53,756 bases of DNA from a virus. Within the stretch, counting starts at the first letter, position 1. Each line of letters begins with the position of its first letter. The stretch lies in the IMG/VR virus record IMGVR_UViG_3300018411_000004; one strand, written 5' to 3'. A program made the position numbers and the translations under genes. The notes beneath the pieces were generated by a model. The model was not told the origin of the DNA, did not search any database, and saw only the letters and a list, made by a program, of their open reading frames with translations. Shown piece after piece: positions 51,198 through 53,756 of this stretch.

Positions 51198-51395
51198 CCT
51201 AAATAAGGCTCAAAATTGGTCAAAAACAGGTCATTTCTTATATAACGCTCATATCCGTGATTTAACAGACTTTAAGGGTTTTAACATATTAAGTGACCTG
51301 TAATTTATTTAAACGCTTCTATGGGGCTCTGAGAGGCTATGTTTTTTTTCGGAAGTCCTGTAAAAATGACGTAAAACGAAAAGTGGAGGTACGTA

Positions 51396-51611
51396 ATGGT
51401 AAATATGGCGGTAATGTTTGTTCTATCGTTTGTAAGCGTTCAAATAGGTTATTGGTTCTGCTATTTAATGAGACCAAAGACGGTTGGTAACATCCTTATA
51501 AACGATACTGAAGGTTTTGATGGTCCGTTTTTATTACTCGAATTAGATGGTAGCGTTAAGGACTTAACTACCAATGCTAAAGTTTGCGTACGAATCGTTA
51601 AACAATCCTAA
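51396..51611 (+). CDS. Small early protein with an N-terminal TM segment
   Basis: 71 aa, RBS aagtggaggtacgtaatg. Confidence 0.65.
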   Translation: MVNMAVMFVLSFVSVQIGYWFCYLMRPKTVGNILINDTEGFDGPFLLLELDGSVKDLTTNAKVCVRIVKQS

Positions 51612-51639
51612 CGCGAATAAAACATATCATTATATGAAG
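51611..51639 (+). promoter_or_regulatory. Early promoter-like box
   Basis: acgcgaa at 51611 and ttatatgaag at 51630. Confidence 0.55.
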
Positions 51640-51663
51640 TAATAAAATAGGAGGATTAAAACT

Positions 51664-52083
51664 ATGAATGACAGAATTGAAGAATTGTTGGACGAGGTTA
51701 TTGAATCTGAATTGGAGAAAATGAAAGACTCTTTGGAGAGTCCGGAAGAAAAGAAAGTAACGGTTGATTATTTGGTAAAACTGAATAACATACAAACCGA
51801 ACGTAAGGAAGTTAAACGTAAAGAAACTGAACTTGAATTAAAGCATTTAGAGTTAGAGGACAAAATAGAAGTCCAATCTGACGATAAAGCGTATAAGGAA
51901 GTTTTAGTGAAGCGTGAAATGTTACAGACGTTCGTAAAGGGTGGAATTGAAGTTTTCGGAGTAGTCGCACCAATTATGTTCTATTCGGCATGGATGAAGC
52001 GAGGTCTGAGATTTGAAGAGACAGGTACATATACGTCACAGACGTTCAAAGGTTTGTTTGGTAAATTTAAACCAACTAAGTAA
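51664..52083 (+). CDS. Early protein (coiled-coil plus a C-terminal hydrophobic segment)
   Basis: 139 aa, RBS taggagg. Confidence 0.7.
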   Translation: MNDRIEELLDEVIESELEKMKDSLESPEEKKVTVDYLVKLNNIQTERKEVKRKETELELKHLELEDKIEVQSDDKAYKEVLVKREMLQTFVKGGIEVFGVVAPIMFYSAWMKRGLRFEETGTYTSQTFKGLFGKFKPTK

Positions 52084-52096
52084 TACTGATAGGATT

Positions 52097-52124
52097 GAGA
52101 GTTAAAACACTCTCTTTTCTTTTT
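52097..52124 (+). terminator. Intrinsic terminator (cassette type)
   Basis: gagagt-taaaac-actctc hairpin followed by ttttcttttt. Confidence 0.65.
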
Positions 52125-52136
52125 GGAGATTTACAT

Positions 52137-52165
52137 ACGCGAAAAAAACATTGACTTATATGAAG
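52137..52165 (+). promoter_or_regulatory. Early promoter-like box
   Basis: acgcgaa at 52137 and ttatatgaag at 52156. Confidence 0.55.
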
Positions 52166-52195
52166 AATAAAAATATAATACGTGGAGGTATTAAA

Positions 52196-52435
52196 ATGGA
52201 AAGTATTTTGAGAACAAAGATTGAAGAATTGGAAGAGTTATTAACGGTTGAGATTATCAACACCGCTGGAGGAATATCCGACGACGAGATAGAAGCGCTG
52301 ATTAATTTAAAACAAACAATTCGACGATCTTTGAAAATAACTGCTGGACGTGAAGAACTTCGAGATGTTAAAAAGATATTCGAACTGAATAAGAGACTTA
52401 AAGAATTGGATAAGCCGTTAAACTTTAAAAAGTAA
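52196..52435 (+). CDS. Small early protein
   Basis: 79 aa. Start after acgtggaggtattaaa. Confidence 0.65.
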   Translation: MESILRTKIEELEELLTVEIINTAGGISDDEIEALINLKQTIRRSLKITAGREELRDVKKIFELNKRLKELDKPLNFKK

Positions 52436-52445
52436 TGGTTGATTT

Positions 52446-52471
52446 GAGGGCGTAAGCTCTCTTTTCTTTTT
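52446..52471 (+). terminator. Intrinsic terminator (cassette type)
   Basis: gagggc-gtaa-gctctc hairpin followed by ttttcttttt. Confidence 0.55.
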
Positions 52472-52500
52472 GCGCGAATTTAACATACCCTTATATGAAG
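52472..52500 (+). promoter_or_regulatory. Early promoter-like box (GCGCGAA variant)
   Basis: gcgcgaa at 52472 and ttatatgaag at 52491. Confidence 0.5.
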
Positions 52501-52530
52501 TATATTAAAAGTACGTGGAGGTACAAAGAA

Positions 52531-52743
52531 ATGAATAGAGATAAAATGGTTCGTGAATTTGGAATTGCATTATTGGCTTTTGGATGTGGTGGGTTGACAA
52601 CAACGGCGGTTATATACCAAAAATTGAAAAACCACAACAAACAAATAAAACAATACGATGACGAAATTTACAACGGTATTATGGAAATGAGAGAAATTGT
52701 AAAACAACGTGAACAAGATAGAAACGAAGGATTGGAGTCTTAA
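52531..52743 (+). CDS. Small early protein with a TM segment
   Basis: 70 aa. Start after gtacgtggaggtacaaagaa. The stop codon lies in the terminator hairpin. Confidence 0.65.
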   Translation: MNRDKMVREFGIALLAFGCGGLTTTAVIYQKLKNHNKQIKQYDDEIYNGIMEMREIVKQREQDRNEGLES

Positions 52744-52760
52744 CAGACTCTTTTCTTTTT
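52735..52760 (+). terminator. Intrinsic terminator (cassette type)
   Basis: gagtct-taac-agactc hairpin followed by ttttcttttt. Confidence 0.7.
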
Positions 52761-52771
52761 GAAGTTTACAT

Positions 52772-52800
52772 ACGCCAAAAAAACATATTGTTATATGAAG
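52772..52800 (+). promoter_or_regulatory. Early promoter-like box (ACGCCAA variant)
   Basis: acgccaa at 52772 and ttatatgaag at 52791. Confidence 0.5.
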
Positions 52801-52831
52801 AACATATTAAAAAGTACGTGGAGGTACGAAA

Positions 52832-53104
52832 ATGAAACTTATGAATTTATTTAAGAAACGATATGATTTGGTTGTGGTATTTAGAGAAAAACGAGAAGTT
52901 AGAACAGAGGAATATTTTGCAATCAGAGAGATTTTAGAATCATATCACATAAAAGGTGAAGTGGTTGAGATTTACTCTGATTCGGATTATGTAGCTATTA
53001 AAGTTGTCGTTGTCGATAATATCCAAATGATCAGAAGAGACTTAATAGAGAGATTTGGAAAATTGGAAACTCGAGTAGTTGGAAATACAATATTCATTGA
53101 CTAG
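52832..53104 (+). CDS. Small early protein
   Basis: 90 aa. Start after gtacgtggaggtacgaaa. Confidence 0.7.
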   Translation: MKLMNLFKKRYDLVVVFREKREVRTEEYFAIREILESYHIKGEVVEIYSDSDYVAIKVVVVDNIQMIRRDLIERFGKLETRVVGNTIFID

Positions 53105-53132
53105 AGTCTTAACAGACTCTTTTCTTTTTTTT
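53104..53132 (+). terminator. Intrinsic terminator (cassette type)
   Basis: gagtct-taac-agactc hairpin followed by ttttctttttttt. Confidence 0.7.
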
Positions 53133-53161
53133 GCGCGAATTTTACACACCCTTATATGAAG
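53133..53161 (+). promoter_or_regulatory. Early promoter-like box (GCGCGAA variant)
   Basis: gcgcgaa at 53133 and ttatatgaag at 53152. Confidence 0.5.
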
Positions 53162-53183
53162 TATATAATCTAGGAGGATTAAA

Positions 53184-53378
53184 ATGAAGACGAAATTAGA
53201 AAACAGTTTAGAAGCAATGGTTGCGATGTTGGCATTAAACGTTAAGGAAACAGACGGATGTTTTTTCGATAGTGAGATCTTAGCTATTAAAGCCTTATTG
53301 GAAGCTTGTGAAACATGTGTTTCTATTGTTGAATTCAGAAGTGTTTTGGATAATTATATTAAGAAGTTAGAGTCGTAA
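53184..53378 (+). CDS. Small early protein
   Basis: 64 aa, RBS taggagg. The stop codon lies in the terminator hairpin. Confidence 0.7.
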   Translation: MKTKLENSLEAMVAMLALNVKETDGCFFDSEILAIKALLEACETCVSIVEFRSVLDNYIKKLES

Positions 53379-53395
53379 CAGACTCTTTTCTTTTT
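53370..53395 (+). terminator. Intrinsic terminator (cassette type)
   Basis: gagtcg-taac-agactc hairpin followed by ttttcttttt. Confidence 0.7.
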
Positions 53396-53424
53396 ACGCC
53401 AAATAAACATATCATTATATGAAG
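53396..53424 (+). promoter_or_regulatory. Early promoter-like box (ACGCCAA variant)
   Basis: acgccaa at 53396 and ttatatgaag at 53415. Confidence 0.5.
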
Positions 53425-53453
53425 AAACTAATAAAATATAAAGGAGAATTAAA

Positions 53454-53648
53454 ATGATAAATAAGATAGTTGATAGAATTGTAAAACAGATAGATTTTGC
53501 AGGTATGTTTAAAAGACAACCTAAGAAAGAAAGTGTGTTGAAAGATTTATTCAACGATCCAGATGCATTTGAATTCAATGGTTATGTTGAAAATGGCGAA
53601 ATAAAAATTAGCATACGTAAACGTATGAAAGACGAAAAGGAAGCTTAA
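53454..53648 (+). CDS. Small early protein
   Basis: 64 aa, RBS aaaggag. The stop codon lies in the terminator hairpin. Confidence 0.7.
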   Translation: MINKIVDRIVKQIDFAGMFKRQPKKESVLKDLFNDPDAFEFNGYVENGEIKISIRKRMKDEKEA

Positions 53649-53756
53649 CAAGCTCCTTTCTCTTTTTGGCACGCGAAAATAACATATCATTATATGAAGA
53701 GAAGGCTTAGCTCAGAGGTAGAGCACTGGTGAAAACCCAGGTGTCGTGAGGTTCGA
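53634..53756. repeat. Terminal direct repeat, copy 2 (identical to 1-123)
   Basis: Read directly. It contains the second copy of the promoter box (53671-53699) and the 5' half of the tRNA-like element. Confidence 0.95.
53639..53668 (+). terminator. Intrinsic terminator (cassette type). Same sequence as 6-35
   Basis: ggaagctt-aac-aagctcc hairpin (one bulged A) followed by tttctcttttt. Confidence 0.55.

Follow-up and report, generated by a model that had tools for sequence, protein, structure and literature searches.

What reads the intergenic box that recurs before many genes of the virus genome IMGVR_UViG_3300018411_000004, the RNA polymerase of the host or an enzyme of the phage itself? The stretch analysed, referred to as the window, has a full length of 53,756 nt and is a circular assembly of a gut phage genome of 53,633 unique bp: the 123 nt at its start (1-123) are identical to the 123 nt at its end (53634-53756), and because of this overlap the assembly is described as circular (or circularly permuted). 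All window genes are carried by the + strand. A previous sequence-only reading of this DNA had proposed that the box may be read by a phage factor, most obviously the phage's own RNA polymerase. The comparative evidence favours this proposal, and from it we infer that the boxes are probably the cognate promoters of a 928-aa polymerase encoded by the phage, rather than promoters of the host sigma-A holoenzyme.

The window was searched with the pattern RCGCSAA-N12-TTATATGAAG, allowing up to two mismatches. Twelve matches were obtained against 0.11 expected, and none of 100 shuffled sequences reached 12. All matches were found on the + strand, at the positions previously listed for the motif with its 12-nt gap, which was thereby confirmed, and additionally at 53671. 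The sites 38 and 53671 are one and the same, since the 123-nt end overlap duplicates one box and part of a tRNA-like gene; the number of unique strong sites is therefore 11. When both strands were scanned with a position weight matrix (PWM), these 11 boxes scored 38-46.5 bits, a variant at 19222 scored 16.9 bits and everything else scored 4.7 bits or less. The information content of the box is about 36 bits.

Numbered from the C of CGC, the box consists of CGCGAA (1-6), an A/T-rich stretch, ACA (11-13), five variable bases, TTATAT (19-24) and GAAG (25-28). The ACA block (12-14 in the numbering of the sequence-only reading) is a third conserved block, absent from that reading. The sites are the following:

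38-66 (= 53671-53699), + strand: box located by PWM, abutting the tRNA-like gene, with a predicted start near G63
1127-1155, + strand: box that overlaps the 3'-terminal codons of the DUF6353 gene (269-1138), hairpin-free on its 5' side, predicted to drive a 61-aa gene (1180-1365)
1392-1420, + strand: box with a hairpin (1364-1382) on its 5' side, predicted to drive a 62-aa gene (1450-1638)
12451-12479, + strand: box directly past the stop of the Bro-N gene, predicted to drive 12504-12782 and the nucleotide-metabolism genes downstream
18841-18869, + strand: box with one mismatch (GAAA), predicted to drive a 98-aa gene (18893-19189)
19222-19250, + strand: variant box ACGCGAAAAAAACACGCCCTTTTATAGAG, 5' of the endonuclease-exonuclease-polymerase operon, with an orthologue in relatives
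51611-51639, + strand: box that opens the array and overlaps the stop codon of gene 51396-51611, predicted to drive a 139-aa gene
52137-52165, + strand: box with a hairpin (52097-52114) on its 5' side
52472-52500, + strand: box of the GCGCGAA variant, hairpin (52446-52461) on its 5' side
52772-52800, + strand: box of the ACGCCAA variant, with a hairpin (52734-52751) on its 5' side that contains the stop codon of the upstream gene
53133-53161, + strand: box of the GCGCGAA variant, hairpin (53103-53120) on its 5' side
53396-53424, + strand: box of the ACGCCAA variant, with a hairpin (53369-53386) on its 5' side that contains a stop codon

The boxes had been described as framing every small early gene. 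There is indeed an array of small genes, which runs from 51.4 kb across the junction to 2.2 kb, but two small genes (51396 and 1691) are boxless, and three boxes (12451, 18841 and 19222) are located outside the array, among replication and nuclease genes. No box was found in the 28-kb structural (late) arm of the window. Directly 3' of the 19222 box (19259-19264) the sequence reads ATG TGA, a start codon followed at once by a stop, where relatives have an open reading frame (ORF) beginning ATGTGT; a small leading ORF seems to have been lost in the window.

A hairpin with a T-run is located 5' of eight of the 12 boxes, counted as the 11 unique strong sites plus 19222 (52137, 52472, 52772, 53133, 53396, 53671/38, 1392 and 19222), in agreement with the earlier statement that most boxes are so preceded; boxes 51611, 1127, 12451 and 18841 have none. 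Between 50.9 and 53.7 kb, eight terminator-like sites (G+C-rich hairpin followed by a T-run) were found against 1.0 expected. Seven early proteins had been reported to end in -ES or -EA with their stop codon inside the hairpin; only five such genes could be counted, with stops at 52743, 53378, 53648, 1638 and 19189. Three hairpin elements complete the list of sites:

53639-53665, + strand: hairpin GGAAGCTTAACAAGCTCC with T-run, 5' of box 53671/38, containing the stop of gene 53454-53648
1627-1690, + strand: boxless cassette with terminator hairpin and ribosome binding site (RBS) box, 5' of gene 1691-2257
19180-19205, + strand: terminator-like hairpin with T-run, between gene 18893-19189 and the 19222 box

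The two conserved types of RBS box previously noticed downstream of the boxes, GTACGTGGAGGTACGAA and TAGGAGGATTAAAA, were both confirmed. The distance from box to start codon is 23-32 nt, and the genes in the cassettes encode 61-139 aa. The cassettes of the window fall into sub-families that share 20-50 nt of near identity.

Six complete phage genomes of 34-61% G+C, whose host genera belong to two phyla, share a three-block box in the same register: CGC occupies positions 1-3 and ACA positions 11-13, a TATAAT-like hexamer follows at 19-24, and purines come next. The box lies nearly always on the coding strand. In Faecalibacterium phage FP_oengus and Lactococcus phage 1706 it was found from upstream regions, and in Streptomyces phage HotFries, Arthrobacter phage Mudcat and Gordonia phage Secretariat by de novo repeat searches. 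Iterated PWMs gave 6-15 sites per genome, with none or one on the opposite strand. The consensus sequences are:

Window: CGCgAA..taACAt..caTTATATGAAg
FP_oengus: CGCGAAAaa..CAg..TcCTTTATGgaa
Lactococcus 1706: cacA.gTTTTACAta..CTATAGTAGAa
Streptomyces HotFries: CGCA.gtTtT.C..Gc.tTaTaatGAGA
Arthrobacter Mudcat: cGCgaaAatTACAcGggCTAtAATg
Gordonia Secretariat: CGCA...aTTACAcgCccTATAATGAGA

The box is present as well in the human-saliva phage D_HF5_2C, in Giantsbane and in the IMG/VR contig L007. The hexamer varies by phage. The Arthrobacter and Gordonia phages and D_HF5_2C have TATAAT, the Lactococcus and Streptomyces phages have TATAGT, and the window and FP_oengus have TTATAT and CTTTAT, respectively. 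Both TATAAT and TTATAT occur, in the same register, in one IMG/VR contig.

The box goes together with the polymerase gene. All complete box-bearing phage genomes encode a homologue of the 928-aa protein, with 37-51% identity; this tally leaves out L007, a 9.5-kb stretch of a longer contig, and the comparison set consisted of polymerase-encoding phages only. The motif was found in eight further polymerase-encoding phages checked, and in L007. In 74 of 75 metagenomic relatives a box is located about 940 nt 5' of the polymerase gene and is conserved above its flanks, and in each phage where it was looked for there is one box 5' of the nuclease-polymerase operon. The site at 19222, previously called a degenerate copy, is the orthologue of this operon-upstream site and is thus a real one. 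A search of IMG/VR for the exact box yielded only five stretches with a single site each, three of which (L006, L007 and L008) are relatives with variant boxes. A stricter search of 596 Gb of genomes yielded three isolated matches, two of them apparently inside coding sequences, so that neither a prophage relative nor a host could be identified in this way.

The candidate reader is encoded in the last module of the linear gene order:

20171-22957, + strand: 928-aa predicted single-subunit two-barrel RNA polymerase, with two N-terminal helix-turn-helix (HTH)-like units and a C-terminal sigma-region-4-like HTH (residues 889-927)

The protein matches PHROG 4291 (phrog_4291, a family of RNA-dependent RNA polymerase (RdRP) type) over its full length and has a weak Pfam RdRP match; its C-terminal HTH passes the Pfam cut-offs for Sigma70_r4_2 and HTH_38. 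The AlphaFold model (predicted local distance difference test, 80.4; predicted template modelling score, 0.72) was compared with the PDB by Foldseek, which returned QDE-1 (E 3.8e-8, probability 1.0) and plant RDR2 as best matches, followed by weak matches to Rpb1 of Pol II and bacterial beta-prime. The sequence SGADFDGD, which contains the DFDGD motif, is invariant in a set of 41 and a set of eight sequences. A sequence search of the PDB with the protein gave nothing, and its similarity to YonO was undetectable by simple search. A T7-like enzyme of Pol I fold was considered and ruled out by the phrog_4291 assignment and the QDE-1/RDR2 fold matches. Taken together, these results make the protein credible as a single-chain two-barrel RNA polymerase, like QDE-1 and YonO, with fused HTH domains.

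The family is large and extends from Actinobacteria to Clostridia. With a cut-off of E <= 1e-10, at least 8000 metagenomic homologues were obtained, and a homologue is also encoded by 250 deposited phages, among them phages of Arthrobacter, Gordonia, Streptomyces, Lactococcus and Faecalibacterium. Polymerase activity has been predicted for it in a preprint by HHpred and the DxDGD motif, and HTH domains at both protein ends were noted there, with no mention of promoters (bioRxiv 10.1101/842583). Of the core non-structural proteins that were examined, none but the polymerase has a DNA-binding domain that can be recognised; several conserved core proteins (83 aa, 184 aa, 214 aa and DUF6353) have no known function. 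When 30 window proteins were compared with Pfam or PHROGs, the HTH of the polymerase was the only sigma-like match, in a comparison that included no search aimed at MotA or AsiA.

We regard the position of tRNA-like genes relative to the box as the most telling argument on its reader. The gene in the window is:

68-138, + strand: tRNA-like gene found with Rfam, starting 6 nt past the hexamer of box 38

Such a gene begins at box position 30 in the window, 27 in FP_oengus and 28 in D_HF5_2C, that is 6, 3 and 4 nt after the hexamer, which in D_HF5_2C is a perfect TATAAT. If the hexamer were a sigma-70 -10 element, transcription would start inside the tRNA-like RNAs, because the genes begin 3-6 nt after it. 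This position does not fit sigma-70 geometry and suggests a start site at about position 25, as in T7 and SP6 promoters. A start at G25 leaves leaders of 2-5 nt, and in the window and FP_oengus the 3' trailer can, by our own reading, pair back to position 25. Conservation of the box also runs into the purine run (GAAG, GGAG, AGAA, GAGA), like at T7/SP6-type starts. In principle, the tRNA-like RNAs could also come from upstream promoters by read-through, which weighs against this argument.

The tRNA-like genes themselves are aberrant in all three related phages in which they abut a box (window, 68-138; L001, 2936-3005; L103, 20081-20160), with Rfam tRNA scores of 29-48 bits. The window copy has a 4-bp anticodon stem and the loop UGAAAAC; in the copies of FP_oengus and the saliva phage, the anticodon loop is odd as well. 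ARAGORN called no gene for the window and saliva-phage copies and called the FP_oengus copy tRNA-??? with a 2-nt anticodon; it found no tRNA in the window, nor any within 10 kb on either side of the polymerase gene in 60 relatives. Downstream of the tRNA-like gene, a second structured element (139-245) repeats the GGUGAAAACC loop, includes a hairpin resembling a T-arm (GUAGGAGUUCGACUCUCCCUAC) and terminates with a T-run; it matched no Rfam family.

The box was further compared with sigma-70 promoters. Its upstream block had been called not TTGACA-like and its hexamer a poor TATAAT, and both statements held: no conserved -35-like hexamer was found 16-18 bp 5' of the box hexamer, and TTATAT in the window and CTTTAT in FP_oengus have no A at hexamer position 2 and fail the TAnnnT rule, which the hexamers of the actinophage, Lactococcus and saliva relatives follow. 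Genome-wide, sigma-70-like matches occurred at chance level (10 vs 10.7, 73 vs 66.9, 54 vs 57.2 and 35 vs 33.4 expected). The spacing of a sigma-70 start, 6-8 nt 3' of the -10, does not appear to be respected at the box. Two other candidates were rejected. With ACA taken as part of a -35 and the AT-rich leader downstream as the -10, the downstream hexamers were unconserved, and box 38 abuts the tRNA-like gene. The sequence TTGATA-16-TGnTAAAAT before the polymerase gene lies in conserved coding sequence (FDKII) and is uninformative as a host-type promoter.

A late promoter was sought 3' of the polymerase gene, and the conserved element there was found to be cos/packaging-like and not a box. The late arm, without box, has no enriched sigma-70-like site and only one + strand terminator; for these reasons read-through from the 19222 promoter across the cos region may serve it.

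These findings suggest the following model. Each box would serve the 928-aa polymerase as a promoter of about 28 bp, with transcription predicted to start at or next to G25 (63, 1152, 1417, 12476, 18866, 19247, 51636, 52162, 52497, 52797, 53158 and 53421). Such a start would set the blocks at about -24, -14 and -6 to -1, with a spacing of approximately one helical turn, so that the upstream blocks, as duplex, may be contacted from one face by the fused HTH domains and melting of the AT-rich hexamer may occur immediately 5' of the start, as in T7 and SP6 promoters. The boxes would serve the whole non-structural arm: besides the small genes and the tRNA-like RNA, this comprises the genes of nucleotide metabolism and the nuclease-polymerase operon, whose own box would give positive feedback. 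The hairpin and T-run elements would insulate or stabilise each transcript, after which the two RBS box types would set translation. The conservation of the upstream blocks across two phyla argues that the reader should be a conserved phage protein. As to timing, the label 'early' fits awkwardly with a polymerase gene about 20 kb downstream that bears the same kind of box.

Several points weigh against this model. The literature searched contains no transcript or biochemical data for members of the polymerase family. An initial source of the enzyme is needed, because the polymerase gene is about 20 kb downstream of the array and is itself boxed; a conserved host-type promoter for it was sought and not found, and the Lactococcus 1706 homologue orf75 carries no annotation as a virion protein. 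The recognition helices of the C-terminal HTH, compared with the upstream block in eight sequences, showed no clear covariation, in a sample of few lineages and proteins with three HTH units. Near-consensus sigma-70-like promoters in different registers (TTGACT-17-TATAAT and TTTACA-17-TATAAT, 11 of 12 matches) overlap boxes at 52151-52179 and 53141-53169, and these sites are possible entry points for the host polymerase. In four of the six lineages the hexamer is of the TAnnnT type (TATAAT or TATAGT), which the host holoenzyme might use too. Canonical intrinsic terminators, moreover, are signals known for the host polymerase. YonO, the best-studied enzyme of this fold class, transcribes late genes from a single promoter (PMC5467207), and here the late arm is boxless.

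Some of these points are shared by an alternative that we consider unlikely, namely that the boxes are read by the host RNA polymerase holoenzyme, either as unusual sigma-A promoters or with the help of a phage activator or appropriator on the CGC and ACA blocks. The phage polymerase would then serve other genes, for example late genes, the only ones that YonO transcribes (PMC5467207). Such a reader would be in keeping with the distance of exactly 12 bp between the upstream block and the TATAAT-like hexamer, with the perfect TATAAT and TATAGT of the actinophage, Lactococcus and saliva phages, with the classic intrinsic terminators flanking the units, and with small genes by the lysis module that resemble host-dependent early genes; one of the core proteins of unknown function could be the activator. 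Against it stand the window and FP_oengus hexamers, which break the -11A rule in Firmicutes hosts in the absence of a -35, and the tRNA-like genes, which in three phages leave no room for a discriminator of sigma-70 type. The upstream blocks kept across two phyla point to a conserved phage reader, and the proteins of unknown function are themselves boxed. Also against it, neither boxes nor enriched sigma-70-like sites were found in the late arm.

Far less probable is that the boxes are not promoters at all, and act as recombination 'boundary sequences', as stoperator-type repressor sites or as RNA processing or leader elements. In cluster AU Arthrobacter phages, gene translocations and deletions are reported to be confined to a repeat-flanked region whose repeat is the same box (bioRxiv 10.1101/2020.01.10.891226), the boxes are intergenic and point in one direction, as stoperators do, and the cassette sub-families with their stretches of near identity would suit recombination. 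However, recombination needs similarity only within a genome and leaves a layout with variable spacers shared across phyla unexplained, and most relatives are lytic and have no repressor. The fixed distance to the RBS and start codon, the site before tRNA-like genes and the AT-rich block followed by purines are features of promoters. The sequence-only reading had asked whether cassettes bound gene gain and loss among relatives. Five near-identical assemblies of the phage, obtained independently from several metagenomes, showed none and had identical gene order, while shuffling is reported in the preprint on the Arthrobacter phages (bioRxiv 10.1101/2020.01.10.891226). Gene shuffling may well be a by-product of the boxes rather than their function.

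From the cos-like region (about 23.4 kb), the gene order is HNH, terminase, portal, protease-capsid and tail genes, then a diversity-generating retroelement (DGR), then holin and an amidase with clostridial hydrophobic W (ChW) repeats. The small-gene array follows, and beyond it DUF6353 proteins, a 1341-aa primase-polymerase, a single-stranded DNA-binding/annealing protein, a helicase and nucleotide-metabolism genes; the linear order ends with a VRR-Nuc endonuclease, an exonuclease and the 928-aa protein. By protein similarity only, FP_oengus is the closest deposited phage; megablast of 13.7 kb against deposited phages gave no match. No relative was obtained when loci were searched with the DUF6353 protein. 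Three paralogous DUF6353 genes are present (269-1138, 2257-3015 and 3700-4632), with homologues in all six phages compared. A 1473-aa tail protein (40737-45158) has 12 ChW repeats, and the endolysin (50217-51197) combines ChW with Amidase_3; the ChW repeats of these two proteins point to a Clostridia host.

The DGR (45748-49130) contains a target gene of 680 aa with the variable repeat at its end (47678-47778), a template repeat (47824-47924) that is 81% identical to it, an Rfam RT-18 RNA (47955-48026) and, with an RVT_1 match, a reverse transcriptase (48039-49130). Depending on the sample, the length of the target protein is 666 or 680 aa. The non-coding region 23223-23661, which separates the polymerase module from the first late gene, is probably the cos/packaging region; an element at about 23367-23446 (AGGGGGG..CACCCCC..CCCCGGGGG) is kept in relatives including FP_oengus, and a perfect 28-nt inverted repeat is found at 23460-23487 and 23600-23627. 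Downstream of the endolysin gene, a non-coding stretch of about 200 nt (51198-51395) with GGTCA repeats (GGTCAaaaacaGGTCA, then TGACC) precedes the boxless gene for a 71-aa membrane-like protein, and the two may form a separately regulated unit under a host promoter.

Phage polymerase and promoter pairs (T7, SP6, N4, phiKZ and P23-45) have been central to transcription research and biotechnology. Linking the motif to the polymerase provides a defined 28-bp template for which the start base is predicted, and makes the enzyme testable in cultured systems (Lactococcus 1706, the Arthrobacter, Streptomyces and Gordonia phages, and FP_oengus). If the link is correct, it would reveal the way in which fused HTHs let a minimal two-barrel polymerase recognise a duplex promoter, with a bearing on the evolution of sigma-independent initiation; temperate members would silence a dozen promoters by withholding one enzyme, and new orthogonal expression systems for Gram-positive hosts might become possible. 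We see about an even chance that the box is the first definable promoter of the large family of HTH-fused, QDE-1-like single-subunit polymerases, recognised free of sigma by built-in HTHs and started after a TATA-like block. In the literature searched, subscription papers being outside its scope, no paper links the motif to the polymerase or maps its promoters. Promoter arrays for phage polymerases are already known, and what would be new is the three-block promoter of an HTH-fused QDE-1-like enzyme.

The box resembles the promoters of T7 and SP6 in being a contiguous, strand-specific motif of about 25-30 bp before many genes, with an AT-rich TATA-like block right before the predicted start and conservation into the purines that follow. 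The SP6 promoter ATTTAGGTGACACTATAGAAG shares ACACTATAG..AG with the box of Lactococcus 1706. Unlike in T7 and SP6, the enzyme here is two-barrel and QDE-1-like rather than a Pol I-like right hand, the box reaches further upstream (CGC at about -24) in three blocks about 10 bp apart, and the polymerase operon is itself boxed. In sigma-free promoter reading, this would be a T7-like solution reached by a catalytic core of cellular type.

The T4 middle (MotA) promoters also have a specificity box 12±1 bp 5' of a -10-like hexamer and no -35, but the window hexamer is not TAnnnT and its start seemingly comes right after the hexamer. The sequence-only reading had likened the cassettes to the promoter-early stem-loop (PeSL) cassettes of T4-type phages and to the host-takeover module of SPO1. 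The likeness in architecture is real, as PeSL cassettes are stem-loop and promoter modules around small ORFs in a variable region; however, PeSL promoters are host sigma-70 early promoters, whereas the box fails the sigma-70 tests, and both systems rely on host sigma-70 or sigma-A promoters, the opposite of the reader proposed here. In cluster AU Arthrobacter phages, rearrangements are reported to be confined to the region of a 32-bp intergenic repeat, which was interpreted as a recombination boundary with no link to transcription or to the polymerase gene (bioRxiv 10.1101/2020.01.10.891226). This repeat is the same hairpin-plus-box cassette (in Giantsbane, hairpin and T-run, then CGCGAAAATTACAAGGCCTATAATGA), and for this reason the PeSL analogy holds for architecture and perhaps for evolution.

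Closest in enzyme type are YonO of the Bacillus prophage SPbeta and gp96/gp64 of the Thermus siphovirus P23-45. YonO, too, is a phage polymerase with both barrels in a single chain, and the 2017 paper left its promoter sequence undetermined; it has one start site for the late operon, as against the 12 sites here, none of them in the late arm (PMC5467207). The P23-45 enzymes are single-subunit two-barrel polymerases with (pre-)early motifs found only where the enzyme is encoded, but the motifs are AT-rich and GC-rich, one enzyme is injected as a fusion with the tape measure protein, HTH fusions were not reported, and the start sites were mapped experimentally, whereas here they are predicted from sequence (PMC10770324). 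Conserved motifs 5' of the P23-45 early genes proved to be promoters of two-barrel polymerases, in work that used the same logic of co-occurrence as was applied here to the box and the 928-aa polymerase (PMC10770324).

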